From: Candidatus Micrarchaeota archaeon
Lineage (GTDB): Archaea; Micrarchaeota; Micrarchaeia; Anstonellales; Bilamarchaeaceae
Length of the DNA: 64,000 nucleotides
Assembly: GCA_040757035.1 (NCBI GenBank)
Contig: JBFLYM010000002.1
Location: forward strand, 4,300 to 68,299
Reading direction: 5' to 3'
Shown here: piece by piece, positions 1 through 51,845 of the stretch
Numbering within the stretch: the stretch's first letter is position 1
Layout of the letters: every line of letters begins with the position of its first letter
Notes under the pieces: model-generated
Database searches by the model: none
What the model saw: the letters and a program-made list of their open reading frames with translations, nothing else
What the model was told of the DNA's origin: nothing
Program-made: the position numbers and the translations under genes

Positions 1-219
1 ACCTTTGCGAAATCAAAACTCAAGACCAGAAACATGTTTTCCACAGTCCCCCACGCTACCAATACGCAGTTCCCTGTTTTCTGTTTTCAATTCCGAAATC
101 CAAAACCAATTCCGAAACAAAACCCATAAGGCAAAATTTGAAACCAAAAACTCAAGACCGAAAACTCTTACGCTATCATGGCCATCTAGTGGATTAGTAA
201 TTGGTTAGTACAATATAAA

Positions 220-3101: not shown

Positions 3102-3260
3102 GCATTATTATAGTGTTTGATTTATATAATTATATAATTACTACAATCGTTTGTCAACTACCGTCAACTACCTCCTATTGAAATGATCAACTATGACCAG
3201 CTATGACTAAGTTGTAACCTATAGTTGTGAAAAAAAGCTTATTGCTAACTTGTTTTTGCT

Positions 3261-3358
3261 ATATACTCAACCAACTAAGTTTTTCCGATTTTGTTTTTTA
3301 GGTTTTATCTCGATTGGTTGAGTATATGCGATCCACGTTTTTTTAGTGGATCGGTATA
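3261..3358. repeat. 98-bp nested-hairpin intergenic repeat, copy A (family R1)
   Basis: Near-identical (1 mismatch) to the reverse complement of 12794-12891 and highly similar to 51748-51845. Stem 1 is atactcaaccaa/ttggttgagtat. Stem 2 is cgatccac/gtggatcg around a T-rich loop. It supplies the C-terminal 27 codons and stop of the upstream decarboxylase ORF. Confidence 0.9.
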
Positions 3359-4661
3359 ACCAACTTGCTTTTCTCTGTCCGGAAATTATTTTTTCGAACT
3401 CATCGTGTTTGCGCACTAATTCGTATTTTCCATTATTCACTAATATTTCCGCTGCTCTTGTTCTGAGATTGTAATTTGAGCTCATACTATATCCGTATGC
3501 GCCAGTAGTAAGCACGCACAATAAATCTCCTTCACTAAGTTTTGGCAAAGTTCGCGCGCGCGCAATGTAATCTCCGCTTTCGCATATTGGACCAACAACA
3601 TCATAAACATCATAAGTTTCCTGTTTTTTGTTTTTGGTTTCTGGTTTTCCATCCACAATTATGTGATGATAAGAATCGTACATAGTTGGACGCACCAAAA
3701 CATTAAAGCCTGCGTCTATTCCTGCAAATTTTTTATGCGGAGTTTGTTTGAGTGTATTTACGCGCGTGAGCAAAACAACCGCATCCGCAACTAAAAATCT
3801 TCCAGGTTCTATGCAAAAATACGGTTCGCCCAATTTATGCTCTTTAAGTTTTCGCACAAAAAGCCCGAGCACTTCATTCACATATTTGTCAAGATCGAAC
3901 TCATCTTCTGGTTTGTAAGGAACACCTAACCCGCCGCCTATATCTATAAACTCAAACTTTATTCCTGTTTTTTTCGCGATTTTGCCCGCTATGTCCATAA
4001 ATCGCGCAAGTGGTTGAATAAAATCCACTACATTTAGAATACCAGAACCTATATGCATATGAATTCCGAATTTTTTTACACCACCTATTGATTTGGCTCT
4101 TTCATAGAATTCAAGCGCATCGTGCTCCCATATCCCAAATTTTGAATCTGGACCAGCAGTAATGGTATGCGAATGATGGCCAGCGCCGATTTCTGGATTT
4201 ATTCTTGCGGAAATAAACTTGGATTTTACAATTTTAATTAATCGTTCAAGTGCGGAACGCGAATCCAGGTTCATGCGTATTTTTTTTTCAGAAAGCGCAC
4301 GCAATTCGTCATCTGTGACGTTTGTGCCAGTGAAAAGTATTTTTTCTTTTGCGAAACCTGCATCAAGCGCAGCGAGGACTTCGTTTAGAGAAAGCGCGTC
4401 AATATACGAACCTTCTGAATTAAGTATTTTGAGTATGTTAAGATTAGAATTTGCTTTCATTGCGTAATGAATCCGGACTTTGTTGATTTTGTATTTTTTT
4501 GCGAGCGCGTTTCTAAGCCGGATATAATTCTCTCGGATGCGGTTCTCGTTTATCACATAAAGTGGGGTGCGGAATTTTTTTGCGAGCAAAGCCGCGCTGA
4601 CACTCCCTATAAAAAGATTTCCATTTCTATTTACAATACCGGTTTTATAAAAATCTACCAT
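3267..4661 (-). CDS. lysA: PLP-dependent decarboxylase, diaminopimelate/ornithine/arginine decarboxylase fold (likely LysA)
   Basis: HYAMKAN PLP-lysine motif, TIM-barrel plus beta-sandwich organisation and CESGD motif. The C-terminal tail is encoded by repeat copy A. Confidence 0.7.
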   Translation of the reverse strand: MVDFYKTGIVNRNGNLFIGSVSAALLAKKFRTPLYVINENRIRENYIRLRNALAKKYKINKVRIHYAMKANSNLNILKILNSEGSYIDALSLNEVLAALDAGFAKEKILFTGTNVTDDELRALSEKKIRMNLDSRSALERLIKIVKSKFISARINPEIGAGHHSHTITAGPDSKFGIWEHDALEFYERAKSIGGVKKFGIHMHIGSGILNVVDFIQPLARFMDIAGKIAKKTGIKFEFIDIGGGLGVPYKPEDEFDLDKYVNEVLGLFVRKLKEHKLGEPYFCIEPGRFLVADAVVLLTRVNTLKQTPHKKFAGIDAGFNVLVRPTMYDSYHHIIVDGKPETKNKKQETYDVYDVVGPICESGDYIARARTLPKLSEGDLLCVLTTGAYGYSMSSNYNLRTRAAEILVNNGKYELVRKHDEFEKIISGQRKASWLYRSTKKTWIAYTQPIEIKPKKQNRKNLVG

Positions 4662-4703: not shown

Positions 4704-5966
4704 TTATTCCAATAACCACTTCCATAATGGAATTAGCTTTATTGCTTTGTTTTTCACCTTTAGTCCAGCTTCAAAATCTATGGTGATTATTGTTAAATTG
4801 TTGCACTTAAGTCTTTCACTTGCTGCAATAAGCGCATCAATTTCCCGTTCCTTCAGTTCATCTAGCAAGGATAGTGCAGTAACTTGAATTAGCTCTACGA
4901 TTTTTTGGCGTCTTTTCAAAACAAAGTCCACTTCCTTCTGGAAATAATCCTTCCAATAATAAACTTCCAATTCATGGTCCGTCTCTTTTTTCCGTTGAAG
5001 CTGAATAGCAACAATGTTTTCAAGAATTCGTCCTTTATTTTCTGAGAACTTGAAACCGATCAGATTAACAATTCCTGAGTCGATGCAATAAACCTTCTTG
5101 GGTGCAATAAACTGCTGTTTTAGCTTGAAGTCAAAACGTTCAACTTTAAAGACCAAAAAGCATTCTTCAAGATATGAAAACCACTTGGAAACAGTGGAAA
5201 CGTGTTTTACATCGAGCAGTTTTGCCAAAGAGCTATAAGTGAATTCTCCAGCAATGTTGGAAACAAGATATTTAGCCATTTGCTTTAGATTATCGCTTTT
5301 CTTTATTTTGTGTCTAACAACAATATCTTTGGTCAGAACGTCATCATATGTCCTTAGAAGTATCGTTTTGCCAAACTTGTAGGCCTCTGGCATGCCGCCG
5401 TTGATAAGGTAATCCTGAAGGTAATTGCCTATAATCGCCTTTTCCTGTGTAGTGTAGGCCTTTGAAAAGGTGAAATCCCGAAACGACAAATATTCTTTAA
5501 ATGAGAAGGGAAACAGCCTGATGGCTATGTGCCTGCCAGTGATGTGAGTGGCCAGTTCACTCGATAACAGACTGGAATTGCTGCCGGTGAGGATAACCCG
5601 CTTTGAACGCCTTAACCTATTGGCAAAAAGTTCCCAACCAACTATGTTCTGGATCTCATCCAAAACAATATAATCTATTTCCCTATAAAGCTCATAGAAG
5701 GCTTGCAAAACAGAGTCTAAATCGCTCGCCTTAAGCCCGAAAAGCCGCTCGTCGTCAAAGTTAACGTAGCCGAACTGGTGCCCTTGTTCAAGCAAATAGG
5801 AGAATATTGATTTACCGCACCGCCTAATCCCGGTAACTACAAGGATATTTGGGTAGTTGAGATAGGTCCGTGCTTCCGATAATCCTTCCCTCGGGATAAT
5901 ATGCTCGGTTTTTTGGATATTCTCCAATTCGAGCCTCTGCTCTTTGATAATTCCTTTTAAATCCAT
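4704..5966 (-). CDS. AAA+ ATPase, COG1373 type (AAA_14 plus DUF4143/PD-(D/E)xK-like C-terminal domain), paralog 1
   Basis: Walker A GIRRCGKS and Walker B VLDEIQ. C-terminal E..DFV..K motif. Ends ...LWKWLLE, as in the paralogs at 10086 and 21649. Confidence 0.75.
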   Translation of the reverse strand: MDLKGIIKEQRLELENIQKTEHIIPREGLSEARTYLNYPNILVVTGIRRCGKSIFSYLLEQGHQFGYVNFDDERLFGLKASDLDSVLQAFYELYREIDYIVLDEIQNIVGWELFANRLRRSKRVILTGSNSSLLSSELATHITGRHIAIRLFPFSFKEYLSFRDFTFSKAYTTQEKAIIGNYLQDYLINGGMPEAYKFGKTILLRTYDDVLTKDIVVRHKIKKSDNLKQMAKYLVSNIAGEFTYSSLAKLLDVKHVSTVSKWFSYLEECFLVFKVERFDFKLKQQFIAPKKVYCIDSGIVNLIGFKFSENKGRILENIVAIQLQRKKETDHELEVYYWKDYFQKEVDFVLKRRQKIVELIQVTALSLLDELKEREIDALIAASERLKCNNLTIITIDFEAGLKVKNKAIKLIPLWKWLLE

Positions 5967-6772: not shown

Positions 6773-6967
6773 ATAGCCCCGATCGGATTCTCGCCACTCA
6801 ATCCCAACGTTATCTAAAGAGGGTAAAGCCCCCTTGGGCTGACATTCGAACCGATGTTACAAGGTTTCTCCATTTTTTAGTGGATCAGTATATTTTGTGT
6901 TCCAAAATTGAAAACAGAAAACAAGGAAACCAGAGCCTTGTATCCTTGACCGCTAGAAGACGGGGCT
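6773..6967. ncRNA. candidate structured RNA / GC-enriched intergenic element
   Basis: Convergent intergenic region clearly GC-richer than its surroundings. Terminal inverted repeat agccccg...cggggct could close about 185 nt. Contains an R1-derived motif ttttttagtggatcagtata at 6874-6893. Confidence 0.2.
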
Positions 6968-10085: not shown

Positions 10086-11381
10086 ATGGGTATAGACAAA
10101 TTAAACGAATGGAATCCATGGTGGGAGAATAGAGAATCCTTATCTGAATTTACAGGCAAATCAAGGCCAGCATATCTTCAAATACTCAATTCTATAGACA
10201 TAAAGGAAATAACTATATTAACTGGTGTAAGAAGATCTGGAAAAAGTACGTTGATGTATCAGATGATTGATAATTTGCTAAAACAGGGAATTGATTCAAA
10301 ACAGATAGTTTTCGTAAATTTAGAAGATAAAAAACTTTCGAAAGATAGTTTGGATGATATTTACATAGCTTATAGAAAAGAACTCAATCCTGATAGAAAG
10401 GCGTATATTTTTTTTGATGAGATTCATAAGAAAAAGGATTGGGAGTTCTGGATAAGAAAAAAGTATGATTTAAAAACAAATGATAAATTCGTTATTTCCG
10501 GCTCTTGTTCTTATTTATTAAAAAAAGAATACTCTACTTTATTAACTGGGAGGAATATTTCTTATGAAATATTTCCTTTAAGTTTTGAAGAATTTTTATT
10601 GTTTAAAGGCATAGAGATCAATAAAGACAATTTGAAAAAAGGCATAATGATCGAAAAAACAAGATTCTTAATTCTTAAATTTCTTGATGAATACCTAGAT
10701 TTTGGCGGCTTTCCAGAGGTTTTTTTTAAACCAATAAATTTCAAAATAAAACTTTCGGAACAATATTTTGATGATATCCTCTATAAAGACATAATAGATA
10801 GATATAATCCAAATAGTCAAAAAACAAAGGATTTTGCATTATTTTTGATGACTAATTTTACGAGTTTGATTTCGTTAAGAAACATAAGAAATGCGCTTGG
10901 TATATCATATGACTCAATAAAGGATTATTTATCATATTACAAAGAAGCATTTTTATTTTTTATATTGAATCATTTTTCCTATTCCTTCAAAGAACAAAAA
11001 ACTTTGCCGTCCAAGATTTATTGTATAGACAATGGGTTAAGAAATGCCGTTAGCTTCAAATTTTCCAAAGACAAAGGAAAACTCGCAGAGAATGTTGTTT
11101 TTATTGAGTTAAGAAGACGAGGAAAAGATATTTATTATTGGAGAAATAAGGGTGAAATAGACTTTATAATAAAGAACAAGGATCAAACACTGACCGCCAT
11201 AAATGTTTCGTATACCGATGAGATTCCGGAAAGAGAAGTATTCTCATTAAAAGAATTTGAATCAGAATATAAAAACAAAGTGAAGGAACTCGTTTTGATA
11301 ACCGAAAGCATGGAAAAGGAAGAGGAAGGAATTAGGTTTGTTTCCCTATGGAAATGGTTGTTAGGGATGTTAGAAGAGTAA
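10086..11381 (+). CDS. AAA+ ATPase, COG1373 type (AAA_14 + DUF4143), paralog 2
   Basis: GVRRSGKST Walker A and FFDEIH Walker B. C-terminal GEIDFIIKNK (ExDxxxK). Ends SLWKWLLGMLEE. Confidence 0.75.
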   Translation: MGIDKLNEWNPWWENRESLSEFTGKSRPAYLQILNSIDIKEITILTGVRRSGKSTLMYQMIDNLLKQGIDSKQIVFVNLEDKKLSKDSLDDIYIAYRKELNPDRKAYIFFDEIHKKKDWEFWIRKKYDLKTNDKFVISGSCSYLLKKEYSTLLTGRNISYEIFPLSFEEFLLFKGIEINKDNLKKGIMIEKTRFLILKFLDEYLDFGGFPEVFFKPINFKIKLSEQYFDDILYKDIIDRYNPNSQKTKDFALFLMTNFTSLISLRNIRNALGISYDSIKDYLSYYKEAFLFFILNHFSYSFKEQKTLPSKIYCIDNGLRNAVSFKFSKDKGKLAENVVFIELRRRGKDIYYWRNKGEIDFIIKNKDQTLTAINVSYTDEIPEREVFSLKEFESEYKNKVKELVLITESMEKEEEGIRFVSLWKWLLGMLEE

Positions 11382-11402: not shown

Positions 11403-12806
11403 TTATATCTTACTTTTCTTACTTTTGCCATGTTTTTTGTCATGTTTTTTCATCCATAAAATAAAATTTCCAAAGTCATGAGCCAATCCTTGGAATGGAT
11501 AAATCGTAACAATTTTTGCTATGAGTCTGCCAGTTGTTGCTTTTTTCAAAGGACGTACGATCTCTTTGGTGTTTGAAACAACGAAAAAACCAGTGATCAA
11601 TCTTGTCAATGCAATAATCAAAAAGAATATGTGAAAACTGAGAACGGCATTTCCCCCAAGAAACCCAAGAATCGCTCCGCCGAAAATTATTCCTGCAAAT
11701 GTTCCTGTACCACGAGAAAGAGAGAAATCTCCCATCGCGCTTACCCTTGAACGGACGGGTGTAATCTCGTAAAGGTAATTATATACCGTTGCGGATATAC
11801 CGCTCCAAATTATTCCGCTGTATGCTTCGGCAAGGAGAGATTGGACAAAATTGGAAACAAAAATCCAAGGCAATATCATTGTAAAGGAAAGCATACTTAC
11901 AGCGTTCAAGACCTTTTTAGTGCCGTATTTTTCTATCAATCTGCCCCAGTGTGGGGAAGCCAACGCGTAGCTTATTGTCCACAACGCTATTGTAAGTGAA
12001 AATTGGAAATAATCAAATTTAAGCATGTTGAACTTATATATTATTATGTACGGCGCAACCATATTGACTGAAAAGAAAACAAGAAAAATACAAACCAAAT
12101 ATTTCGTAAAATCGTTTCCGAGTTTGGATTTTGATTCTGCTTTTGGATTTGGGTCCCAATAAAGAGTAAGATAATAAGCACTAATGCTCCGAGTAACGAA
12201 TGCAATGAAAAAAAGCGTTCCGAAACCAAAGAATATGTTTGTTTTTGTGTAATCCAGAAAAATCCCTGCCAAAACAAGGGCAGCCAATCCTGCAAGATTC
12301 CACATTCTGTCCCTATAACCAAGCCAGCTCGCTCTTGTTTTTTCATGAACAACATCGCCTATAATTGCGAACCATGCTGGATTTACAACACCGCCAAAAA
12401 AATATATTGCAATTACAAGCAATATAAACGCAGTATTCGCAAAATCCTTAGAGAGTAAATTAAATTGGAACGCGAGCATCGCCACTCCGAACCATGTCAA
12501 AGCTTGTAGCGCAACTCCATAAATCAATATTTTTTTTCTTTCCCATCCAAAATCTGTGAAAAACGAGCCGATTTTCTGCGCAATGCCATCAAAAAGTGCA
12601 GGAAAAGAACCGAGCGCGGTTATGAAAAAAAGCGGAGCTTTGATTGCAATTGCAAACGGTGTCAGAAATACTGTGCCCGTATTCATCATTATTGCCCATA
12701 CTACTCCGTCTAGCGTGGAATAATGCATTGTTTTTTCTATTTTTTCTTTAACATTTTTTTCTTTAGCATTCATAATTATATCCTTGTCCAAATTATACCG
12801 ATCCAC
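11403..12806 (-). CDS. MFS transporter
   Basis: About 12 predicted TM helices and the GxxxDRxGRR-like loop (GYRDRMWN). Confidence 0.65.
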   Translation of the reverse strand: MDRYNLDKDIIMNAKEKNVKEKIEKTMHYSTLDGVVWAIMMNTGTVFLTPFAIAIKAPLFFITALGSFPALFDGIAQKIGSFFTDFGWERKKILIYGVALQALTWFGVAMLAFQFNLLSKDFANTAFILLVIAIYFFGGVVNPAWFAIIGDVVHEKTRASWLGYRDRMWNLAGLAALVLAGIFLDYTKTNIFFGFGTLFFIAFVTRSISAYYLTLYWDPNPKAESKSKLGNDFTKYLVCIFLVFFSVNMVAPYIIIYKFNMLKFDYFQFSLTIALWTISYALASPHWGRLIEKYGTKKVLNAVSMLSFTMILPWIFVSNFVQSLLAEAYSGIIWSGISATVYNYLYEITPVRSRVSAMGDFSLSRGTGTFAGIIFGGAILGFLGGNAVLSFHIFFLIIALTRLITGFFVVSNTKEIVRPLKKATTGRLIAKIVTIYPFQGLAHDFGNFILWMKKHDKKHGKSKKSKI

Positions 12807-12891
12807 TAAAAAAACGTGGATCGCATATACTCAACCAATCGAGATAAAACCTAAAAAACAAAACCGGAAAAACTTAGTTGGTTGAGTATAT
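12794..12891. repeat. 98-bp nested-hairpin repeat, copy B (family R1, opposite orientation to copy A)
   Basis: Reverse complement differs from 3261-3358 at one base. Confidence 0.9.
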
Positions 12892-12929: not shown

Positions 12930-13598
12930 TTATTTTATTCTAATAAATATCTCTCCAAAAAAATCATCTTGTCTTAGATCTATTATTTTTTTTTGCGAAA
13001 GATGGAGAAGCGGCATTAGAGTGTTCACTATTTCATTTGCATCTCTATTTTCTAGTAATCCTGAAAATGTCGCCCATCCTTCGCTATCCGCTTTTTGTTT
13101 TAAGCACAGAAAAACGCTACTCATGCGTTCTTCTATATCAAATCTTGGAATTGCAATAGTTATTATCTCTTCTATTTTTTTAGGCTTGGGTTCAACAGGA
13201 TTATCATAAGCAATTATTCGTTCCATTTCTTTTAGCAGATCTTCAAGCGCTATTGGAGCTTTTGGTGGTATGCGCGAAACAAGCTCTAATTTCGGTATTT
13301 CTTCGCACGCGCCCAATGTTCCAGATTCTTCAGCATGAACATCTTGTATTGGTAATTCTTCAGCTATTTTGAGTGCGTTGCTTTTATACTTTAGAAGGAT
13401 TGCGGCAGCGAGTATGAGATTTGCTGGAACATACAATTCAAGCGTTTTCATTTTTTTTAGATTACGAAGAAAACTATCTGCCAACAGCGTTATATCTATA
13501 TTCCAGGGATCAAGCCGTTCACTAGCCATCATCTCCATTAGCATTTCTTTCCACATTGGTTTAAGAATCATCTTTTCTATATTTTCTTCTGCAGACAT
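12930..13598 (-). CDS. scpA: segregation and condensation protein A (kleisin ScpA)
   Basis: N-terminal LDPWNIDITLLADSFL resembles the ScpA 'DIYDIPIAEITDQYL' helix. Length about 220 aa. Confidence 0.55.
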   Translation of the reverse strand: MSAEENIEKMILKPMWKEMLMEMMASERLDPWNIDITLLADSFLRNLKKMKTLELYVPANLILAAAILLKYKSNALKIAEELPIQDVHAEESGTLGACEEIPKLELVSRIPPKAPIALEDLLKEMERIIAYDNPVEPKPKKIEEIITIAIPRFDIEERMSSVFLCLKQKADSEGWATFSGLLENRDANEIVNTLMPLLHLSQKKIIDLRQDDFFGEIFIRIK

Positions 13599-13715: not shown

Positions 13716-14819
13716 GTGAACATGCTAGAATCAAAACTCTTTGATGCGTCAGAACAACTATCAAAGGTGTTCAACGAAATATTGCGAACAGGAACTGCTG
13801 TTTTTATTACAAAAAACAACATACTTTTCGGCCTTATAGACGATAGAAACATGCGAATTGGAATAGCAAATGCGAGTAAAATGAAATGCGAGAATGCGTG
13901 TGTAAAATGCCCTGCGATAGCCGAAAACGCCTCAATTTTGGAATGCATTAACGCATTTCTTTCTGGACATTTCAAAGCACTTCCTGTTTTGAACGCAAAG
14001 AAAAAAATAGTAAATGCAATATCGCGCGTAGATGTTTTAAAAGAACTCAGTGCAAAAAGACTGATTCCGCGTGCGCAGATTTGCAGATATATGAACGCTC
14101 CGGTTTGCACTATAGAAACAGAACAAAGTGTTGCGGATGCGAAATCCAAAATGAAGAAATTTAGAGTACATCATTTAGTTGTAACTCAGAAAGGTAACAT
14201 AGTTGGGATTATTTCAACTTTTGATTTTGTGGGTCTTTTCGCAACACGAAAAGAAAGACAGTCTTACCAGCTAATAAGCGAAATAAAGAATTTTGATTCA
14301 AAAAAAATTAATGAGATTTACAGAGAAAATTTTGTTACTTTGGATGAAAACGCGACACTTGATGAAGCGGTACTAAAAATGATAGATGAGGATACTTCTT
14401 CAATAATAATTGTCGCCAATAAAAAACCTGTTGGCGTACTTACAGCCATGGATATATTCAAACTTGTGCGCAAACTTTGCGCTGAAGAAAGAGATATATC
14501 TATAAATGGCTTAGATAATACCGATGTCGAAGTACGCGTGCATTACGATAAAATAAAACAATATATAATTAATACTATAAATAAATTTGATAGATCATTT
14601 AAAATAGAGAATATCGCAATCCACATGAAAAAAGGAAAGGGCAGATACGAAGCACGCGCGCAGTTTTATCTTAACAATAAACAAATCGCGTTCAAGTGCG
14701 AAGCTTATAGTTTAGGTGAGATTGCATCAACGCTTTCAAGCGAATTTAAAACAATATTGGAAAAGAGAAAGAGCGAAAAAATGGAGAAAAAAAAGCGCTC
14801 GCCTGTAGAAGACCGATAA
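13716..14819 (+). CDS. CBS-domain (4 CBS motifs) protein fused to a C-terminal HPF/RaiA (S30AE)-like domain
   Basis: Four CBS-like segments in residues 1-270. The last ~95 aa (VEVRVHYDKIKQYIINTINKFDRSF...AFKCEAYSLGEIASTLSSEFKTILEKRKSE) align in order with the HPF beta-alpha-beta-beta-beta-alpha pattern (…A.AEG.DMY.AID..DKLARQL.K). Confidence 0.55.
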   Translation: MNMLESKLFDASEQLSKVFNEILRTGTAVFITKNNILFGLIDDRNMRIGIANASKMKCENACVKCPAIAENASILECINAFLSGHFKALPVLNAKKKIVNAISRVDVLKELSAKRLIPRAQICRYMNAPVCTIETEQSVADAKSKMKKFRVHHLVVTQKGNIVGIISTFDFVGLFATRKERQSYQLISEIKNFDSKKINEIYRENFVTLDENATLDEAVLKMIDEDTSSIIIVANKKPVGVLTAMDIFKLVRKLCAEERDISINGLDNTDVEVRVHYDKIKQYIINTINKFDRSFKIENIAIHMKKGKGRYEARAQFYLNNKQIAFKCEAYSLGEIASTLSSEFKTILEKRKSEKMEKKKRSPVEDR

Positions 14820-14866
14820 AAATATTCGGTCCTCTGAAAAACGTGGATCGCATATGGGGTAATTTC

Positions 14867-21479: not shown

Positions 21480-21496
21480 TATACATATATGCGATC

Positions 21497-21516
21497 GATT
21501 TAGCGGCTCAGTAAAA
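21497..21516. repeat. 20-bp motif cgatttagcggctcagtaaa (left boundary of the two-ATPase block)
   Basis: Identical 20-mer at 24318-24337. A related 15-mer tcggcgctcagtaaa at 10036-10050 lies upstream of ATPase paralog 2. Confidence 0.7.
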
Positions 21517-21648: not shown

Positions 21649-22899
21649 TTATCTCGACATCCACTTCCAAGCTGGTTCAATTACTATTCTTTTCTTATCT
21701 ATTTCTAATTTATCTTCTTGATCGAGCGTTATTATTATTCCTTCTTTCAAATTGTATCTATCTAATGCTTCCAAAAGCCCGCCCAGCTCCCGATCTTTAT
21801 TCTCATCTCCAACCTTAAAACAAACCTGCACTGCGAAAATTATCTTGTTGGCATCTTTGACCAGGAAATCGCATTCGCGCTTGCCTTTAAAATAATAAAT
21901 ATTTCTATATTTTTTTCTGAGATGCACATAAACAAGGTTTTCCAATAGTCTTCCCTTATCTTCAGATAGCGAAGTTGAGTTTATTCTTGATAATCCGTTG
22001 TCTATGGAGTATAATTTTTTTGGATTTACTAATTGTTTTCTCATTGAATAATCAAATCGAGGAACCGTAAACGCAAGATAACTATCTTCAAAAAACGAAA
22101 TGAAAGAAATAACACTATTGACCGAACCCAGTTCGAATATTTTCTTAAGAGAATTGTAGCTAAATTCCTTTCCAAAATTTGATAGAATGTACAGTGCCAT
22201 TTCATTTAAGGTTTTCAAATTCCTTATTTTGTGCCTTATAGATATATCTCTTGCGACAATATCGCCCAGCAAATGCCTGAGAACCTCGGGGTTTCGTTCT
22301 TTTAGATATTCCGGAAAGCCGCCGTTCCTTAGGTATTCCTCAAACGAATCCACGTCCGGATTCTGTTTCGTAAATTCTAAAAATTCAATATAAGAGAAGG
22401 GGTATAATTCATAAGTTAAGTGTCTGCCTGTCAAACGCGTTCCCAATTCTTTGCTTAGTAATGAAGCGTTGGAACCAGTTATAACAACATATTTTTTCTT
22501 TTCCAGGAGAGATCTTATATAGAGTTCCCATTTGTCCACGCTCTGTATCTCATCAAAAAAATAACAATTCTGTTCCCCTAATTCTTCTTTAAAAGCCTCA
22601 TCCAATCGCTGGAAGTCATTCAGTCCGAAACCAAATGCACGTGGGTCGTCGAAGTCGAAATAATAAAACGACTGATATTTCTTCATTAATTGGCGCATTA
22701 GTGTACTCTTGCCGCATCGTCTTATCCCAGAGATAATTATCGCAAAATTGGTAATTACTGGCATCTCTTTTAATTTTTCCCGTTCTACTCCATAATCCCG
22801 TTGTTTGAACTCTTTATTTTGGGATCGTACAATTTCCTTTAGAACATCCTTTAATATCATGGATGTAGTTTCTACATCTCTCTTTATAAATGTTTTCAT
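21649..22899 (-). CDS. AAA+ ATPase, COG1373 type (AAA_14 + DUF4143), paralog 3
   Basis: GIRRCGKST and FFDEIQ motifs. C-terminal RECDFLVKD. Ends PAWKWMSR. Confidence 0.75.
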   Translation of the reverse strand: MKTFIKRDVETTSMILKDVLKEIVRSQNKEFKQRDYGVEREKLKEMPVITNFAIIISGIRRCGKSTLMRQLMKKYQSFYYFDFDDPRAFGFGLNDFQRLDEAFKEELGEQNCYFFDEIQSVDKWELYIRSLLEKKKYVVITGSNASLLSKELGTRLTGRHLTYELYPFSYIEFLEFTKQNPDVDSFEEYLRNGGFPEYLKERNPEVLRHLLGDIVARDISIRHKIRNLKTLNEMALYILSNFGKEFSYNSLKKIFELGSVNSVISFISFFEDSYLAFTVPRFDYSMRKQLVNPKKLYSIDNGLSRINSTSLSEDKGRLLENLVYVHLRKKYRNIYYFKGKRECDFLVKDANKIIFAVQVCFKVGDENKDRELGGLLEALDRYNLKEGIIITLDQEDKLEIDKKRIVIEPAWKWMSR

Positions 22900-23019: not shown

Positions 23020-24102
23020 CTACAAACCCTGATCGCGTCTCACAGCCGAAAACTTCAAGGCTTCTTTTATAATTGGGTCTCCGAGATTGTATTTTCCCCC
23101 TTTTTCTTCTATGAACCCATATTCCTGCAGCTGATCAAGAAGATTGGAAAGCCTGCTATCTGGAATTGGTTGACCTGATTTCGCTATGATAAAATTTTTT
23201 ATTTCGTTCCATGAAAGCGGCTCTTGGCTGAGAGACGCCAATATAAACAGATAGCGCTCCTTTGCCGCGATTCTCATGTTTAGGAACTCCTTAAGTTCAG
23301 CCGCTATAATCTTTGAGCTGTCTTTTAGTGTTTTTGAAAGAGCAACTTCATGGAACAATTCCTGCCTATAAAAACCATAATAAGTAAGCCAGCCAATCAC
23401 ACCGTCAAGCTTATCAACCGCTGTTTCAATTTCATTTTCTCGAATATTTATTTTCAACTGAGCAAAACCGGTCCTTAAAAACGTGATAGAATCCTTGCGT
23501 TCCAGCCTCCTTAAATTTATCACTTTTTTTGGCCGCCCATACAGTAGGCTCCCGATCTCGGAGCCTATAAACTTGTCCAATATGCCTATTTCGGAACCGG
23601 CAAGTATGATTTTTATTCTTTTTAGTCTATCGTAGATGAAAGCCAAGAAACGGTCAAATCCTGAGGGTTTTAGAAGCTGAACTTCGTCAATAAAAAGGCA
23701 GAAAAAATCATTTCTATCCTCCATCATCTTATCAATTCTTTTTGCCAACTCGCTCAGGCCCTTTTCTTCCCTAAAGCTTAATTTTACATAAATATCCAGG
23801 CCTTCAAGATAGGATTTCGCTTTCTCGTACATGCTTATACTTCTTAGAAAATCGTAAAATGTCCTTCCAATATGTTCATAAACTGCTTTCCTCCCCTTCG
23901 CAATTTCCCTAGAATCGATAAAAAGCTTTGGATGTTTGATTTCGCTGTAAACTACATTCATTAAACTAGTCTTGCCTGTTCTTCGCAATCCGCGCAACAC
24001 TATGAGCCGCTGCTGTTCGAGTACCCTTTCTATTTCCGCACATTCCTTATCGAAACCGAACAAATCTTTTCTGCTCGTCTTTGGTGTGATGTCAAAGTAC
24101 AT
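23020..24102 (-). CDS. archaeal ATPase (Arch_ATPase/COG1672-like, with C-terminal wHTH)
   Basis: LRGLRRTGKTSL Walker A and LFIDEVQ Walker B. Architecture differs from the COG1373 paralogs. Confidence 0.65.
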   Translation of the reverse strand: MYFDITPKTSRKDLFGFDKECAEIERVLEQQRLIVLRGLRRTGKTSLMNVVYSEIKHPKLFIDSREIAKGRKAVYEHIGRTFYDFLRSISMYEKAKSYLEGLDIYVKLSFREEKGLSELAKRIDKMMEDRNDFFCLFIDEVQLLKPSGFDRFLAFIYDRLKRIKIILAGSEIGILDKFIGSEIGSLLYGRPKKVINLRRLERKDSITFLRTGFAQLKINIRENEIETAVDKLDGVIGWLTYYGFYRQELFHEVALSKTLKDSSKIIAAELKEFLNMRIAAKERYLFILASLSQEPLSWNEIKNFIIAKSGQPIPDSRLSNLLDQLQEYGFIEEKGGKYNLGDPIIKEALKFSAVRRDQGL

Positions 24103-24317: not shown

Positions 24318-24337
24318 CTCGATTTAGCGGCTCAGTA
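24318..24337. repeat. 20-bp motif cgatttagcggctcagtaaa (right boundary of the two-ATPase block)
   Basis: See 21497-21516. Preceded by a local tandem gctaaatc x2. Confidence 0.7.
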
Positions 24338-30335: not shown

Positions 30336-30452
30336 AAGGAACACCATGTTTATTATTTATATACAATCCATACAATTCGCGTTTTTTAGCGGATCGGTGT
30401 ATATAAAGGATCGGTATATATAAATAAAGAAAGATATTATAAAAGGAAATCT

Positions 30453-33788: not shown

Positions 33789-35213
33789 TTGCAAACGATC
33801 GGAAAAATTTGGTTGGTTGAGTATATGCCTGGAAAAATATTTGCAGTTGTTGGCAATCCAATACTCCATAGTAAAAGTCCAGAGATGTTCAATGCAGCAT
33901 TTAAGAAATTAAAGATAAACGCTATCTATATAAGAATTGCCGCATTTGATGCAGAAGAAGTGATGCGCACCGCAGATGATATTGGGCTATGTGGTTTAAA
34001 CATTACTTCGCCATTTAAGGAAGAATTAAAGAAAAAAATGCGCGTTTCGAATTCGTTAAACACACTCATAAATACAATCATTATAGATAAAAACGCAAGA
34101 GAAATCGATGCAATAAACTGTATAATTTGCAAAAATGATCCAAAATCAAAGTGTCCGAAGAAACAATTACTGGTTGGTTATAATACCGATGTTGCTGGCG
34201 TTATTGGTGCGCTCAAACATAATTCTTGCGATTTTGTTGGTAAAAAAATCATAGTGCTCGGTGCTGGAGGTGCGGCAAAGGCAGCGATATACGCACTTGT
34301 TTCTAAAAAAGCGGATGTAGTGGTGGTAAACCGCACATTCAAAAAGGCAAAAAAACTTGCGCAGCGATTTGGTTGCAGAGTCTCAAAATTTGATGAAATT
34401 GCGCAAGAACTCGAACATGCGAACATTCTAATCTCATGCGTTCCTACTGGCGAACGAATAATTCCAAAATCAGCGCTACGCAAAACGCTTAGTGTATTAG
34501 ATGCAAATTACTCAATAGATACAGCACTCAAAAAAGATGCAAAGAGCAATAATTGTAAAATAATTGATGGAAGAGAATGGTTACTTTTTCAGGCAATTCC
34601 GTGTTTTAAATATTTTATTGGTAAAAAAGCACCAGTCGCAGCGATGCGCAAAGTGCTTTACTCAAAAAAGAAAAGAAAAAAAAATATCGCTCTTATTGGT
34701 TTTATGGGTAGCGGAAAAACAGCGGTTGCTAAAGAACTCGCAACACTTAACGGAATGAAATCCGTAGATATAGACGCTAACATAGAAAAAAACATGAATA
34801 TGAAAATAGCGCAAATTTTTGAAGATATGGGAGAACGCGAATTTAGAAAAATAGAAAACGCGGAATTAAAAAAGGCGCTTGAATCCGAAAACGCAATAAT
34901 TTCCTGCGGAGGCGGGTTAGTGTTAGATCCGCGCAATGTAGACATGCTAAAAAGAGATTGCACTGTTTTTTGGTTATGGGCAGATATAACAACCATAATG
35001 GAAAGAATAAGTAAAGATGATTCAAGACCATTGATCAGAACTAAAAACAAAGGCGATCTCAAAACCAAAATCGAAATCGCCAAAAAAATATTAGAGCAGC
35101 GGTTATTTGTTTACGCAAACGCTTGCGATGCTCTAATAAATACAGTTGGAAAAAAACCAAAAGAAATTGCCGCAAGGATAGATTATGAAATTAACGAAAT
35201 TAATAAAGCCTAG
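33789..35213 (+). CDS. aroE: bifunctional shikimate dehydrogenase / P-loop shikimate kinase (AroE-AroK fusion)
   Basis: N-terminal AVVGNPILHSKSP with a Rossmann GAGGAAKA (AroE). C-terminal IALIGFMGSGKTAVAKELA...ISCGGG (bacterial-type shikimate kinase I). Probable start MPGKIF at 33825. Confidence 0.8.
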   Translation: MQTIGKIWLVEYMPGKIFAVVGNPILHSKSPEMFNAAFKKLKINAIYIRIAAFDAEEVMRTADDIGLCGLNITSPFKEELKKKMRVSNSLNTLINTIIIDKNAREIDAINCIICKNDPKSKCPKKQLLVGYNTDVAGVIGALKHNSCDFVGKKIIVLGAGGAAKAAIYALVSKKADVVVVNRTFKKAKKLAQRFGCRVSKFDEIAQELEHANILISCVPTGERIIPKSALRKTLSVLDANYSIDTALKKDAKSNNCKIIDGREWLLFQAIPCFKYFIGKKAPVAAMRKVLYSKKKRKKNIALIGFMGSGKTAVAKELATLNGMKSVDIDANIEKNMNMKIAQIFEDMGEREFRKIENAELKKALESENAIISCGGGLVLDPRNVDMLKRDCTVFWLWADITTIMERISKDDSRPLIRTKNKGDLKTKIEIAKKILEQRLFVYANACDALINTVGKKPKEIAARIDYEINEINKA

Positions 35214-45837: not shown

Positions 45838-46644
45838 TTAAACTTCATTTTTAATTATCGGTTTCGGAACAATAGTACCAAGTGATGAACGTATATCTTC
45901 AGTATGTGCTGTTTGTACGGCTTCTATATTAGCACGTATTATGGCCTCTATATCATCGTTATTCAATCCATTTTTCTTCATATCCCTAATCAATTCAACA
46001 AAATCCGCTGCATTCTCTTTTTTCTTTTCTTTGTTTTCCTCGCTTTCATTTGCAGTTATAATGTCTATAACTTTGGAATTATCTTTCTCTTCTATTATTT
46101 TATTTACTATATTATAAGCTTGATCGAGCATAGAAGGACTAAGCTTTTGAAGAAGATTTTGCATAATAATATTTTGCGTGTTTTTAATAATTCGATCAAC
46201 TTCCATTCTGATTCTATCGAATTCGCGTTCGTAGCCGTGGTCGATTGCGAAATCTTGCAGTTGCTTCATTGTACGAATATTATTCCAATTATCTAGGAGG
46301 GATTGTTGTTTTTCAGGGCTTGCTATTTTATAGATCCAACGCTTAGCAAGGTCAACCCCAATAGATTCGGAAATATCATTTATTACCTTGTCAGTTAATT
46401 TAATTGTTTTTAAATAAGAAACTAATTCTTTAGATACCTCGTCCTTTTCCTTTTTTGATAGTAGAGATATGCATAATTTATTATATAAATCTTTTATATT
46501 ATTTTTTTGATCATCGGTCAGAGTTTTTTCTTTCTGTATAATATTTATAATGTTTTCAACGTCACTCTTTACGCATTCCTGAGGAAATTGATCTTGAATC
46601 CGCTTCTTACTGTTATCAGCTCCAACGCTTATTAGACTGTTCAT
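45838..46644 (-). CDS. hypothetical protein
   Basis: 268 aa, helical and charged. Its 3'-proximal 85 bp (45971-46053) is duplicated at 47655-47739. Confidence 0.4.
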   Translation of the reverse strand: MNSLISVGADNSKKRIQDQFPQECVKSDVENIINIIQKEKTLTDDQKNNIKDLYNKLCISLLSKKEKDEVSKELVSYLKTIKLTDKVINDISESIGVDLAKRWIYKIASPEKQQSLLDNWNNIRTMKQLQDFAIDHGYEREFDRIRMEVDRIIKNTQNIIMQNLLQKLSPSMLDQAYNIVNKIIEEKDNSKVIDIITANESEENKEKKKENAADFVELIRDMKKNGLNNDDIEAIIRANIEAVQTAHTEDIRSSLGTIVPKPIIKNEV

Positions 46645-47634: not shown

Positions 47635-47739
47635 AGGTTCGTTCGTAACAGTTCGTTTTTCTTCATATCCTTAATCAATTCAACAAAATCCGCTGCATTC
47701 TCTTTTTTCTTTTCTTTGTTTTCGTCGCTTTCATTTGCA

Positions 47740-47787
47740 TTCTGGCAATTGTGGCATAGTAGCTGTTTGCCGGTATTTGCCAATATT
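47740..47787. repeat. 48-bp direct repeat, left copy, flanking the AlbA_2 gene
   Basis: ttctggcaattgtggcatagtagctgtttgccggtatttgccaatatt matches 49120-49168 with 3 mismatches. Internally palindromic (tggcaa/ttgcca, ggca/tgcc). Confidence 0.85.
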
Positions 47788-47815: not shown

Positions 47816-49120
47816 ATGAAGCTAACCGAATCTCAGCATGCTGAATTTAAGGAAAGTCTTGCTAATCTTGATGCTATTGTAATTAGTGTGGTAGCCTTTG
47901 CGAATAACGGTGGCGGTAAAATATATATTGGAATAAAGGATGATGGAACAATAAAGGGTATTGATGTCGGAAAAAATACAATTGAAAATCTGGCTGCTGT
48001 AATCACAAAAAATACTGAGACAGCAATACTGCCAAGGATTTATATTGAAGGAATTGAAAAAAAAATCATAATAGTCGTTGAAGTTGAAGAAAGCTCGGCC
48101 AAACCTCATTTTTATCGTAAAATTGCATATAAAAGGGTTGGAAAATCCAATATTCAAATGGACATTTTAGAAATAAAACAAATGATCTTAGATCAATCTG
48201 AACGTAGTTTTGATGAAAGCCTTTTTGAGTTTGATTTATCAGAAATTAATACCTCTGTTTTCAATCGGTTCCTGGAAAAATGTAAGCAGAGCGGTAGATT
48301 AAACGTCAAAGAAGATGCGAGTTTAGAAGATCATATTGAAAAGTTGGGCGCATTAAAAGAAAGAAAGGTAAAATTAGGATTTTTACTAATGTTTGCTCAA
48401 AACCCAACCCATTTTCTTCCTCATTTTGGGGTAAAACTTGCAAAAATATCTTCACAAACATTTTCAATTGGTTCGCTTGAACGCAGTATATTTTATACCG
48501 AATCAATATTCAGAGTGATAGATGAGATAGTATTTGAAATAGTCAAAGAACTACCTAAAAGAGTGTACTTAGATGGCTCCAAACGTATAGAAGAACCTAT
48601 AATTCCAACTTCAGCAATTAGAGAATTTGTAGCCAATGCTTTGGTTCATTGTGATTATAGGATTGCATCATCTATTTCGATTTTGCTTACCCCAACTTGT
48701 TTAGAAATATCCAACCCAGGCAGATTGATGGGTTTGAAAATCCAGGATCTTTACAAAAAACACCGCTCAATACTTCGTAATCCATTTCTTGCCAGATTAA
48801 TGTTCCTTTCAGGAGATATTGAAGAATGGGGATCTGGAATTGAAAATGCAAATATAGCTGTACTAAAATCTGGCCTAAGTTTGCCACAATTCAATGTTAA
48901 TTCTGGTTTTTTCAGCGTACGAATAAATTTTGGTACTTCTCAAATTTCTGCTTCGGATAAAATTATCAAAATGCTCAAAGCAGGTCCATTAAGTAGTAAA
49001 CAAATAGCCAAAAAACTAGATATTGCAGACCGAACCGTGAGGGCGGAATTAAAGAAACTTGTGGATTTGGAAGCAATAAAAAAACAGCGAAAAGGTCGCA
49101 AAATTACCTATAAAATTTGA
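47816..49120 (+). CDS. AlbA_2 (Schlafen-like) + HATPase_c_4 + C-terminal HTH protein (putative DNA-binding/regulatory ATP-binding protein)
   Basis: N-terminal ESQHAEFKESL...AFANNGGGKIYIGIKDDGTIKGIDVG matches the AlbA_2 domain signature. C-terminal KQIAKKLDIADRTVRAELKKL is an HTH. Confidence 0.65.
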   Translation: MKLTESQHAEFKESLANLDAIVISVVAFANNGGGKIYIGIKDDGTIKGIDVGKNTIENLAAVITKNTETAILPRIYIEGIEKKIIIVVEVEESSAKPHFYRKIAYKRVGKSNIQMDILEIKQMILDQSERSFDESLFEFDLSEINTSVFNRFLEKCKQSGRLNVKEDASLEDHIEKLGALKERKVKLGFLLMFAQNPTHFLPHFGVKLAKISSQTFSIGSLERSIFYTESIFRVIDEIVFEIVKELPKRVYLDGSKRIEEPIIPTSAIREFVANALVHCDYRIASSISILLTPTCLEISNPGRLMGLKIQDLYKKHRSILRNPFLARLMFLSGDIEEWGSGIENANIAVLKSGLSLPQFNVNSGFFSVRINFGTSQISASDKIIKMLKAGPLSSKQIAKKLDIADRTVRAELKKLVDLEAIKKQRKGRKITYKI

Positions 49121-49168
49121 TTCTGGCAATTGTGGCATAATAGTTGTTTGCCAGTATTTGCCAATATT
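49120..49168. repeat. 48-bp direct repeat, right copy
   Basis: See 47740-47787. Begins at the stop codon of the 47816-49120 gene. Confidence 0.85.
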
Positions 49169-49173: not shown

Positions 49174-50418
49174 TTATGAGAGCCGTTTTTTATAATCAGA
49201 ATATCCAAATTTTCGCACTATGCGCAAGTTTTCTTTACCGTTTAGTTTATGCGGATTGTAAATAGCAATTGAAGGATGCCTTACACCATTAAACATTGTT
49301 GTTTTCACCATGGAGTAATGCGCCATATCCAGAAAAACCAGCTTATCTCCAACACCGAGAGGTTTTGCAAACGAATAATCCCCGATTATATCTCCAGCAA
49401 GGCAGGTCACTCCAGTTAATTGATAGGTATATTTTTGTTCGCCTGGTTTTCCAGCCCCAATAATTTCTGGGCGATAGGGCATCGCAAGCACATCAGGCAT
49501 ATGAGCTTCTGCAGAAGTGTCCAATATCGCAATTTTCATTTTGCTTTTGATTATTACATCTAAAACGCTTGCTACGAGCACACCCGCATTAAGCGCAACC
49601 GCTTCGCCTGGTTCAAGATAAACTTGCACAGAATATTTTTTCTTAAAATCGTTTATTGTTTTGCATAACAAATCAACATCGTAATCATTCCTTGTGATAT
49701 GATGACCGCCACCAAAATTTATCCATTTCATTTCAGAAATATAATTTTTGTACAATTTTTCAAACGATTTCAAAACGCGCACAAGTACATCTGAATTTTG
49801 TTCGCATAACGCATGAAAATGCAGTCCGTCTATTTTTGAAGCAATCTCGTCCAAATCCTCGCATTCGAGGTCTTCTGGTCGCACACCGAGCCTTGAACCT
49901 GGAACGCATGGATTGTAAAGCCTTGTTTTTATCTCAGAATATCCTGGATTTACCCTGAGTCCAACTTCTATTTTTTTTCCCAATTTTTTTTCAGATTCGG
50001 TTATCGCATCGCGATATTTTTTCCATTGCGAAATTGAGTTGAAAATTATGCAATTAGAATAGCGAATTACTTCATCCATGTCGCGTTTAGAATAAGCCGG
50101 CGCAAATGTATGAACTTCTTTTCCAAATTCTTCTTTGCCGAGTCGCGCTTCAATCGCTCCGCTTGCGCACACGCCATCAAGATATTTTTTTATTAATGGA
50201 AAAGTGGAATGCATCGCAAATGCTTTCAGAGCAAGAAAAATTTTTGTATTTGTACGCTTCCGAACCGAACTCAAAATTTTCAAATTCTTTTTCAGCAAAT
50301 CTTCATTCACGATAAAGCATGGCGTTTCTATTTTATCTGTAATTTTTTTCGGGAAATTTTCTAATTCCCTGATATTGAACTTATCTGCGTTCATAGTTTC
50401 ATTCATAGTTTTATTCAT
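49174..50418 (-). CDS. nspC: carboxynorspermidine/carboxyspermidine decarboxylase (PLP-dependent)
   Basis: FLALKAFAM PLP-lysine motif, GGG..HHITRNDYD and the overall fold II decarboxylase layout of NspC. Confidence 0.75.
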   Translation of the reverse strand: MNKTMNETMNADKFNIRELENFPKKITDKIETPCFIVNEDLLKKNLKILSSVRKRTNTKIFLALKAFAMHSTFPLIKKYLDGVCASGAIEARLGKEEFGKEVHTFAPAYSKRDMDEVIRYSNCIIFNSISQWKKYRDAITESEKKLGKKIEVGLRVNPGYSEIKTRLYNPCVPGSRLGVRPEDLECEDLDEIASKIDGLHFHALCEQNSDVLVRVLKSFEKLYKNYISEMKWINFGGGHHITRNDYDVDLLCKTINDFKKKYSVQVYLEPGEAVALNAGVLVASVLDVIIKSKMKIAILDTSAEAHMPDVLAMPYRPEIIGAGKPGEQKYTYQLTGVTCLAGDIIGDYSFAKPLGVGDKLVFLDMAHYSMVKTTMFNGVRHPSIAIYNPHKLNGKENLRIVRKFGYSDYKKRLS

Positions 50419-51641
50419 TACAGAAGTTTTCCTTTGAACTCAATTTGCTGCCATTTGAGTCCATATTTATTAAGCGCTTCCATGAACATATCAGGATCCA
50501 ATTGTTCAACATTAAACACGCCTGCTCCTTTCACTTTCCATACGCCTTTGAGTACTAACATCGCACCTATCATTGCAGGAACTCCTGTAGTATAAGAGAC
50601 CGCTTGCGCCTGAACTTCTTTGTATGCTTCTGCGTGATCGCACATATTATAGATATACGTTTTCTTTTTTTTGCCGTCTTTGGTAATACCGTCAAATATA
50701 CATCCTATTACCGTTTTGCCAGTGTAGTTCACGCCAAGCGAAGCCGGATCAGGAAGTAGAGCCTTCAAGAATTTCAGCGGTACTATTTTTTTACCTTCAA
50801 AATCAATTTCATCTATTCGCGTCATCCCGATATTCTGAAGTACTCGCAGATGCGTTAAATAATTTTCAGAGAACGTCATCCAAAATCGTATGCGCTTCAA
50901 TCCGCGTATGTTTTTTATAAGCGATTCCAGTTCTTCATGATAAAGGAGATAACTTTCTTTTGGACCAACTACTGGATAATCGAACGAAAAATGCACGCTT
51001 TTAGGATTTAGTATTGGCGGTGTTTCAATCCATTTGCCGTTTTCCCAATGCTTTACTATTTGTGTGACTTCGCGAATATTTATTTCGGGATTAAAATTCG
51101 TTGCAAATGGGTGGCCATGACTACCGGCGTTGCAATCTAAAATATCTATGTTCGTTATCTCTTTATAGATATGCTTTTGCGCGTATGCACAAAAAACATT
51201 TGAAACACCTGGATCAAAACCACAACCAAGCACTGCAATTATTCCTCTTTTTTTGAATTTTTCTTGGTACGCCCATTGCCAACTATACTCAAAATGCGCT
51301 TCATCAGGTGGCTCATAATTTGCCGTGTCCAGATAGTGCACTCCTGTTTCAAGGCATGCGTCCATTATAGTTAAATCTTGGTAAGGAAGCGCGACGTTGA
51401 TTACTATGTCCGGTTTGAATTTATTTATAAGTTTGATTAATTCGGGAACTTTATCAGCGTCAACTTGCGCGGTTTTTATTTTTCTACCTGTATTTTTTTC
51501 TATTTCGGCAGCTATTTTATCGCATTTTTCCACAGTTCTGCTGGCGATGCAGATTTCGGTAAAAACTTCAGGAACCTGCACGCATTTTTTTGCAACAACA
51601 TTTCCAACTCCGCCTGCACCAATAATTAATACTCTTCCCAT
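50418..51641 (-). CDS. carboxynorspermidine synthase/dehydrogenase (saccharopine dehydrogenase family)
   Basis: MGRVLIIGAGGVGNVVAKK NAD(P) fold and saccharopine-DH C-terminal domain. Overlaps the nspC start. Confidence 0.75.
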   Translation of the reverse strand: MGRVLIIGAGGVGNVVAKKCVQVPEVFTEICIASRTVEKCDKIAAEIEKNTGRKIKTAQVDADKVPELIKLINKFKPDIVINVALPYQDLTIMDACLETGVHYLDTANYEPPDEAHFEYSWQWAYQEKFKKRGIIAVLGCGFDPGVSNVFCAYAQKHIYKEITNIDILDCNAGSHGHPFATNFNPEINIREVTQIVKHWENGKWIETPPILNPKSVHFSFDYPVVGPKESYLLYHEELESLIKNIRGLKRIRFWMTFSENYLTHLRVLQNIGMTRIDEIDFEGKKIVPLKFLKALLPDPASLGVNYTGKTVIGCIFDGITKDGKKKKTYIYNMCDHAEAYKEVQAQAVSYTTGVPAMIGAMLVLKGVWKVKGAGVFNVEQLDPDMFMEALNKYGLKWQQIEFKGKLL

Positions 51642-51747: not shown

Positions 51748-51845
51748 TATACCGATCCACTAAAAAAACGTGGATCGCATATACGCAACCTGTCGAGATA
51801 AAACCTAAAAAACAAAACCGGAAAAACTTAGTGGGTTGCGTATAT
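51748..51845. repeat. 98-bp nested-hairpin repeat, copy C (family R1) with compensatory stem substitutions
   Basis: Same architecture as copies A and B, but the outer stem is acgcaacc/ggttgcgt instead of actcaacc/ggttgagt. A paired T>G / A>C change preserves the hairpin. Confidence 0.85.

Follow-up and report, generated by a model that had tools for sequence, protein, structure and literature searches.

MITEs are transposable elements of about 50-800 bp without coding capacity, bounded by terminal inverted repeats of about 10-15 bp or more and by a target-site duplication of 2-10 bp; the SM1-SM4 elements of Sulfolobus are archaeal examples. REP/BIME sequences are 20-40-nt imperfect palindromes headed by a GTAG-like tetranucleotide, and the RAYT gene is itself flanked by REPs. 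PATEs of the IS200/IS605 type carry subterminal hairpins set back from their ends together with guide tetranucleotides, and they insert 3′ of a fixed 4-5-nt target with no duplication. In IS200/IS605 ends, as in IS608, a spacer separates the hairpin from the cleavage site and the guide tetranucleotide lies 5′ of the hairpin foot. The MITEs of DPANN archaea have been catalogued in a census, and in DPANN archaea other than the lineage studied here they are found at roughly 100 per Mb (PMC11602168). A limited literature search found no paper describing MITEs of Micrarchaeota.

Here we describe a family of 98-bp repeats in a 64-kb window of Micrarchaeota DNA (the whole stretch that was analysed, 64,000 nucleotides) and compare it with these systems. 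The repeat family is genuine and most likely represents a new lineage-specific element of a well-known kind.

Results

The repeat has sharp boundaries and lies in three different gene contexts

Three copies of the repeat are present in the window: copy A at 3261-3358 on the minus strand, copy B at 12794-12891 on the plus strand and a variant, copy C, at 51748-51845 on the plus strand. In the orientation of copy B the 98-bp unit reads TATACCGATCCACTAAAAAAACGTGGATCGCATATACTCAACCAATCGAGATAAAACCTAAAAAACAAAACCGGAAAAACTTAGTTGGTTGAGTATAT. Pairwise identity among the three copies is 94-99% over 98 bp, with copy A differing from copy B at a single position (column 71) and copy C differing from copy B at five (columns 38, 44, 45, 86 and 92), and the flanks are unrelated. 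When the copies were aligned with 20 nt of flank on each side, similarity ended abruptly at both edges. A 30-mer from the element occurs three times in the window against 0.00 expected in shuffles, and copies A-C were the only strong matches in the 64 kb both to a covariance model run with filters off and to an independent nhmmer profile. The three copies had been picked out in a sequence-only reading of the window, and their coordinates and the gene contexts described for them (the 3′ end of lysA, between tandem genes, and a divergent intergenic region) held up.

Copy A is read in the sense direction by lysA (ORF 3267-4661, minus), to which it contributes the last 29 codons and the TGA stop (3267-3269). 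Copy B is located between scpA and an MFS transporter gene, both on the minus strand; it lies 38 nt downstream of the scpA stop codon (scpA 12930-13598, minus) and upstream of the MFS ATG (12773, minus), which is 20 nt away. Copy C is flanked by the divergent genes for saccharopine dehydrogenase (50418-51641, minus) and aspS (51995-53398, plus). The element has no coding capacity, with stops in all six frames of copies A and B. The flanking ORFs other than those in the domain scan described below are ordinary genes, as judged by homology for lysA and by precomputed Pfam notes, and the gene content of the window is ordinary archaeal housekeeping (aIF2-alpha, aIF5B, ribosomal proteins L1/L10, the shikimate pathway, Pus10, Elp3 and an archaeal-type AspRS). 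Many window genes have a TATA-like box 20-35 nt before the ATG.

The repeat folds into two tandem hairpins

Hairpin 1 occupies element positions 6-30 and has an 8-bp stem (CGATCCAC/GTGGATCG) with a 9-nt loop, and hairpin 2 occupies positions 32-98 and has a 14-bp stem (ATATACTCAACCAA/TTGGTTGAGTATAT) with a 39-nt A-rich loop; a single unpaired base separates them. For copy B, fold prediction places the stems of hairpin 1 at 12799-12806 and 12816-12823 and those of hairpin 2 at 12825-12838 and 12878-12891, all on the plus strand. The two-hairpin fold forms as RNA or DNA and on either strand. As RNA, the copies have minimum free energies of −29 to −32 kcal/mol with z-scores of −4.8 to −8.6, and none of 200 shuffles was as stable. 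The sequence-only reading had proposed nested hairpins with a long stem of 12 bp; the fold instead shows two hairpins that are tandem and adjacent, with a long stem of 14 bp, and it agrees with the 8-bp stem and the A-rich loop of ~40 nt that had also been proposed. The 39-nt loop is nearly invariant, with one change each in copy A and in a fourth copy, copy D, described below.

When the left end of the element, TATACCGATCCA-CTAA, is aligned with the reverse complement of the right end, TATACTCAACCAACTAA, 13 of 17 positions agree and one gap is needed. The end motif is found for a third time inside the element, at positions 33-46, where its perfect pairing with the right end creates the 14-bp stem. 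The perfect 14-bp repeat, which pairs positions 32-45 with 85-98, is thus terminal at one side only. The element looks modular, a 31-bp palindromic module being followed by a 67-bp module with perfect inverted ends, and both modules start with TATAC.

The substitutions of copy C preserve pairing in the long stem

All five substitutions in copy C fall within the 28 positions of stem 2, where they affect three pairs: U38-A92 becomes G-C, A44-U86 becomes U-G and A45-U85 becomes G-U (with T for U in DNA). Pairing of the stem is 100% retained on the copy-B strand, and on the opposite strand the latter two changed pairs are A-C mismatches. By our own calculation, the chance that five uniformly placed substitutions would all fall in the stem is (28/98)^5, or about 0.002. 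Because these substitutions all lie in stem 2 and all preserve pairing, they are not what simple neutral decay of a dead MITE predicts. In a shuffle control for covariation, 46 of 500 shuffles reached the observed values. The compensatory change reported earlier is therefore real, in that T38-A92 is G-C in copy C, but the further claim that it indicates selection on pairing was not established, as it concerns a single variant copy whose values are equalled by these shuffles. Covariation of the copy C stem, seen in one sequence, is suggestive and not statistically decisive, and hairpin-templated intrastrand repair of the palindrome could give the same double changes without selection. This stem covariation is the sole unusual feature of the element.

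Homologues point to insertion at the end of lysA

The LysA of the window is identical to a GenBank protein from a 'Candidatus Micrarchaeota archaeon' MAG (the source MAG), encoded on a 77,725-bp contig. Copy A sits exactly at the lysA stop codon. In all of nine LysA homologues, which are 427-435 aa long and 59-78% identical, the C terminus is KASWL followed by at most one residue. The LysA of the window has 29 extra C-terminal residues, YRSTKKTWIAYTQPIEIKPKKQNRKNLVG, a lysine-rich tail that is wholly encoded by the element. Removal of 95 bp of copy A with one TAT kept yields AGT TGG TTA TAG (S-W-L-stop), and the closest relative has AGT TGG TTG TAA at the end of its lysA. The empty site reconstructed in this way, ...AAGTTGGTTATAGCAAAAAC..., is the only one reconstructed for any copy, and it was obtained at the protein level from a comparison between species rather than alleles; it fits a TAT duplication and a model with no duplication equally well. 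Since synteny differs in the relatives (lysA-dapF in several), an empty site at the DNA level is not alignable. A model search found the element absent from the lysA loci of five relatives (L006-L010); it covered ~53 kb without a match, of which ~46 kb represented the lysA loci of three relatives, and then two more relatives. The 29-aa extension of LysA is an insertion artefact and not a native feature of the protein.

The flanks of copy A (3215-3260 and 3359-3372) contain similar 13-mers, AAAGCAAGTTGGT directly upstream and AAAACAAGTTAGC starting 4 nt downstream. Their likeness is probably a coincidence but could reflect a local duplication at the insertion site.

A fourth copy interrupts an FMN-reductase gene

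An exhaustive HMMER protein search with a 31-aa junction peptide identified copy D on a 4,982-bp contig of the source MAG, whose assembly contains the proteins MEW6528346.1/MFZ5340570.1 and MEW6529179.1/MFZ5340826.1. What is known of copy D is its translated frame, called as P0123 (79 aa) or as P0126 (100 aa). The protein carries the annotation NAD(P)H-dependent oxidoreductase, and its last 30 residues are those of the element frame in the LysA tail with one K to E change. The homologue P0125 continues through the junction with ...IETEMLQLTDLEIKPCKACY, from which we conclude that copy D interrupts the FMN-reductase gene near codon 50 and that the 79/100-aa "oxidoreductase" is, like the LysA tail, an insertion artefact rather than a native protein feature. 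Because a translated search can find copy D only in the sense orientation, the count of orientations among the copies is biased.

Contig ends in the Logan assembly of SRR32167786 also mark the repeat: all four that lie beside copies A, B and C stop 3, 15, 30 or 31 nt inside the element, as expected of a multi-copy repeat in a de Bruijn (k-mer) assembly. One of the Logan contigs, L001, ends exactly after TAT and was considered as a filled/empty polymorphism; this was rejected, as L011, the contig from the other side, enters the element for 15 nt unbranched.

At position 18 of L001 (window ~51732), directly beside copy C, there is a C/T SNP relative to the window. The strain in the SRR32167786 sample is thus closely related but not identical, and this would help in a search for empty-site alleles.

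Short partial relatives of the repeat occur at gene boundaries

Two solo, diverged relatives of hairpin 1 were detected. One, at 14827-14855 (plus), corresponds to positions 6-35 (nhmmer E = 0.0025) and begins 8 nt past the stop codon (14817-14819) of a CBS-domain gene. The other, at 30369-30400 (minus), corresponds to positions 2-34 (nhmmer E = 0.021) and lies next to a second end motif, GGATCGGTATA, at 30408-30418 (+); these 30.4-kb sites are in the divergent promoter region between an aIF5B-type GTPase gene and a wyosine radical-SAM gene. Each of the two solo relatives keeps 7 of the 8 pairs, with one G-T each on the same strand, against one A-C. A marginal relative at 6869-6892 (minus; E = 0.25) covers positions 1-24, the left end together with the left arm of hairpin 1.

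Relatives of the right end were also found, the clearer of which, at 33796-33826 (plus; positions 68-98; E = 0.0028), was absent from the sequence-only reading. It lies just beyond the preceding gene's stop, and the start codon of an aroE/aroK fusion (33825-35213) is supplied by its final bases, ...GAGTATATG. A second right-end relative at 62763-62820 (minus; E = 1.7 by nhmmer for 62784-62810) has 24 identical nt (GCAAACGATCGGAAAAATTTGGTT) in common with 33790-33813 and a 15-17-nt insert, and it too ends in GAGTATATG, which here serves an ERCC4-type nuclease gene (62088-62765, minus) as its start codon.

The remaining candidates are weaker. At 21487-21516 (plus) there is a gapped relative of hairpin 1, ATATGCGATC...TTTAGCGGCTCAGTA, and its 19-mer GATTTAGCGGCTCAGTAAA recurs at 24319-24337; the HMM is significant at neither site. 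Both 21497-21516 and 24318-24337 match only the degenerate 16-mer of the sequence-only reading, which has 7 matches in the window against 0.24 expected, the pattern having been derived from those same sites. None of the four short sites that were folded, 24318-24337 being outside the four, beat shuffled sequence. Of the many derived half-site copies proposed in that reading, those at 14827-14855 and 30369-30400 are thus significant partial relatives, 6869-6892 is marginal, and 21497-21516 and 24318-24337 are weak motif matches. From their sequences, we read the short sites as probable decayed or partial members of the element's repeat family, some of which now appear to lie in gene boundaries. 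Archaeal BRE/TATA promoters were rejected as an identity for the half-sites, since their positions relative to start codons are inconsistent. The end motif GGATCGGTATA could conceivably have a promoter-like role at 30.4 kb.

The repeat looks lineage-specific

The hairpin-1 pattern had no matches in IMG/VR, and those that it had in GTDB representative genomes and JGI metagenomes were chance matches only. L002 and L003 were rejected as further copies because their taxa (Aliifodinibius and Oribacterium) mark them as chance matches, and L004 was rejected on inspection. A scan of viral contigs with the right-end pattern gave 0 matches, and the viral scan with the half-site pattern gave 31 single matches, about the chance number by our own estimate, none of which was confirmed by the covariance model. 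No match was found by blastn of the element against phages and plasmids. With Rfam 15 there were 0 matches at the gathering threshold in the window, and a relaxed threshold applied to copy B yielded only noise (E above 1). By these searches the element looks lineage-specific.

Among 50 ORF translations from the window scanned against Pfam, none contained a transposase or integrase domain. Three other identities were considered and rejected: archaeal origin-recognition boxes, as no orc1/cdc6 gene is in the vicinity and distances of 9 and 39 kb separate the copies; a C/D-box sRNA, as the element is without C or D boxes; and CRISPR, as there is no array.

Other repeats and genes in the window

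The window contains several further repeats. Direct repeats of 54 nt at 54101-54154 and 55380-55433, 98% identical and each itself palindromic (TTTGTTCAGA...TCTGAACAAA), flank an AAA_14 ATPase gene (54128-55342, minus); they could belong to a distinct repeat family or delimit a mobile cassette. This gene is one of four AAA_14 ATPase paralogues in the 64 kb (4704-5966, 10086-11381, 21649-22899 and 54128-55342), three of them with DUF4143; together with an ATPase_2/MCM_C-like gene at 23020-24102 they form an unusually high density of such genes. Several of the AAA_14/ATPase_2 genes have an element copy or remnant within 1-2 kb. Genes of unknown function and a Schlafen/AlbA_2-HATPase_c_4-HTH gene (47816-49120) are surrounded by two more direct-repeat pairs, at 45964-46054 and 47649-47739 (91 nt, 95% identity) and at 47739-47787 and 49120-49168 (49 nt, 94% identity). 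An inverted repeat of 36 nt (57952-57987 and 63005-63040, 97% complementary) is located at two gene boundaries 5 kb apart, and Logan contig L005 starts at its second arm (63005-63040).

Fragments resembling tRNA occur at 6790-6965 (minus), at window positions 70-105 and at 3300-3370 of L013, just outside the start of the window. Their sequences are GGTTCGAAT, GCCCC...GGGGGC and, in L013, GGGTTCGATTCCCGG, and the motif GTTTTCTGTTTTCAA is common to them. The region at 6.9 kb has a long insert and also contains a hairpin-1 half-site. The fragments, which were recognised by neither ARAGORN nor Rfam, may represent tRNA genes that are atypical or contain introns, or a further repeat.

Discussion

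We consider the 98-bp unit to be probably a MITE-like transposable element that is non-autonomous and confined to this Micrarchaeota lineage. At 98 bp and with stops in every frame of copies A and B, it has the size and the coding capacity of a MITE. Its near-identical and bounded copies are dispersed, with three in the window and one on another contig of the source MAG. Insertion is evident from LysA homologues that end at WL and from an FMN-reductase homologue that continues past the junction. The preference of the sequence-only reading for a MITE-like element over a simple terminator is strengthened by these two homologue-inferred insertion sites, by the fourth copy and by the assembly breaks.

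How such an element might move can be proposed from its ends. A transposase encoded elsewhere in the genome would recognise the end motifs and mobilise the element in trans, and insertion would occur at a TA or TAT target, with TAT left on both sides as a presumed 3-bp duplication. The hairpins would then be a by-product, or a requirement, of the repeated end motifs, and the partner transposase gene would be expected to carry TATACCGATCCAC or TATACTCAACCAA in its flanks. TAT is present at both ends of all copies, and hence a duplication is indistinguishable from the element's own termini. Against the MITE-like reading, the window contains no autonomous partner or transposase and only four copies are known; moreover, the perfect 14-bp repeat is not terminal at the left, and the true terminal repeat is imperfect and gapped. 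The pairing-preserving substitutions of copy C, all in stem 2, also count against it.

Several effects on neighbouring genes are possible. In addition to the putative side effects at coding ends, namely the 29-aa tail of LysA and truncation of the FMN-reductase gene, one orientation of the element contains the T-runs T5, T4, T6, T4 and T7. Archaeal RNA polymerase terminates at oligo-T, and the T-runs of copy B face transcription arriving from scpA, where a terminator effect is possible. The TATA-like left end of copy B, 20 nt before the MFS start codon, might possibly have a promoter effect.

An unlikely alternative is that the repeat is a hairpin-dependent single-strand mobile element, either REP/BIME-like or an IS200/IS605-derived PATE, for which an HUH (Y1) transposase would recognise the folded hairpins on one strand and insert the element 3′ of (T)TAT with no duplication. 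Such an element would be expected to have two strong stem-loops, as this one does, and the model without duplication fits the empty-site reconstruction equally. The flank before ACCGATCC is TTAT in three of the four copies and ATAT in the fourth, so the (T)TAT found before all copies is compatible with a PATE. The G-T wobbles of copy C and the two solo relatives lie mainly on one strand, but this bias (4 versus 1) is not significant. At its right end the element has no bases beyond the hairpin, and at its left end 5 nt lie outside the hairpin, a spacing unlike that of IS200/IS605. There is no GTAG-type REP head, the window contains no TnpA or TnpB, and the window ORFs that were checked yielded no Y1-transposase domain.

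That the copies are structured small RNA genes or cis-acting RNA motifs, expressed from the copy-B strand and under selection on the two helices, is quite unlikely. The very stable fold (z down to −8.6), the almost invariant 39-nt loop and the three of three changed pairs in copy C that are still pairable, two of them as G-U and only on the copy-B strand, are what such an RNA would show. However, that covariation comes from one sequence and is matched by shuffles (46 of 500), and the fold is lost in the solo relatives. In three of the four copies the copy-B strand coincides with the sense strand of the gene that adjoins or hosts the copy, but this count is biased by copy D, which was detectable only in sense. 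Nor does the genomic setting favour an RNA: the element has no Rfam match at the gathering or a relaxed threshold and no conserved promoter upstream, the sequence ahead of copy A is coding, two copies damage the genes on or within whose coding sequences they are located, and the element is absent from relatives. We see no sign that it is a new RNA gene.

More generally, the unit might be strand-specific and structure-dependent, mobile or functional, and used or moved as a folded single strand (DNA or RNA) rather than as a passive DDE-type MITE. We regard this as quite improbable. If it were true, the two arms of the 14-bp stem would change in concert against a constant 39-nt A-rich loop and 8-bp hairpin, and the family would represent either a hairpin transposon of a new archaeal type or a structured RNA that is mobile in a DPANN genome.

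Finally, a regulatory DNA module (a protein-binding palindrome or a portable promoter/terminator cassette) kept for its effect on neighbouring genes is very unlikely: GGATCGGTATA(TATAA) does recur in the 30.4-kb divergent promoter, ending ~34 nt before the start codon, the copy B end motif finishes 20 nt before the MFS ATG, two right-end relatives finish exactly on start codons and one orientation has five T-runs, but position and orientation relative to genes are inconsistent (copy A points into lysA antisense and copy D is inside a gene), distances to start codons vary from 20 to 106 nt, most window promoters lack the motif, and an operator would not need near-identity across all 98 bp.

The MITE-like reading implies that a reduced DPANN genome, that of a Micrarchaeota, carries a miniature mobile element that was apparently active recently. 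The element reshapes gene ends, as seen in the LysA tail and the FMN-reductase truncation, and it fragments assemblies. Its filled and empty sites could serve as strain markers. If the stem covariation were upheld across many copies, the family would provide a compact test case for structure-dependent mobilisation in archaea.

Comparison with known systems

REP/BIME/REPIN sequences, which are mobilised by RAYT, and PATEs resemble the 98-bp element as short hairpin-forming extragenic palindromes with two palindromic units, in which strand-specific folding could matter. The 98-bp element, in contrast, has no GTAG head and no RAYT, TnpA or TnpB nearby, and its hairpin-to-end spacing is unlike that of IS200/IS605.

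Rickettsia palindromic elements (RPE) are likewise ~100-bp palindromic repeats of a reduced genome that can enter genes and be translated. They are read through in frame, whereas LysA terminates inside the 98-bp element, which ends the host ORF with stops in all frames (copies A and B).

Correia elements (CREE) of Neisseria are similar in their length of about 100-150 bp, their insertion at TA, the hairpin formed on transcription, their location near genes and their promoter-like ends. Unlike the 98-bp element, to which they have no sequence relation, they are bacterial, possess true terminal inverted repeats of 26 bp along with an IHF site, and are present in hundreds of copies; the promoter and processing effects of Correia elements are only putative for the 98-bp element.

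Compared with the MITEs of prokaryotes, the 98-bp element differs in that its perfect inverted repeat lies internally at one side, its left end carries an additional hairpin module of 31 bp, and any duplication is of at most 3 bp and inseparable from the termini; no parent IS was found. It is like the MITEs of DPANN archaea and the SM1-SM4 elements of Sulfolobus in being about 100 bp long, non-coding and AT-rich with inverted-repeat ends, and in its dispersed near-identical copies, which occur in both orientations, are mostly intergenic and occasionally genic, and are lineage-specific. Like them, it would depend on a transposase encoded elsewhere.
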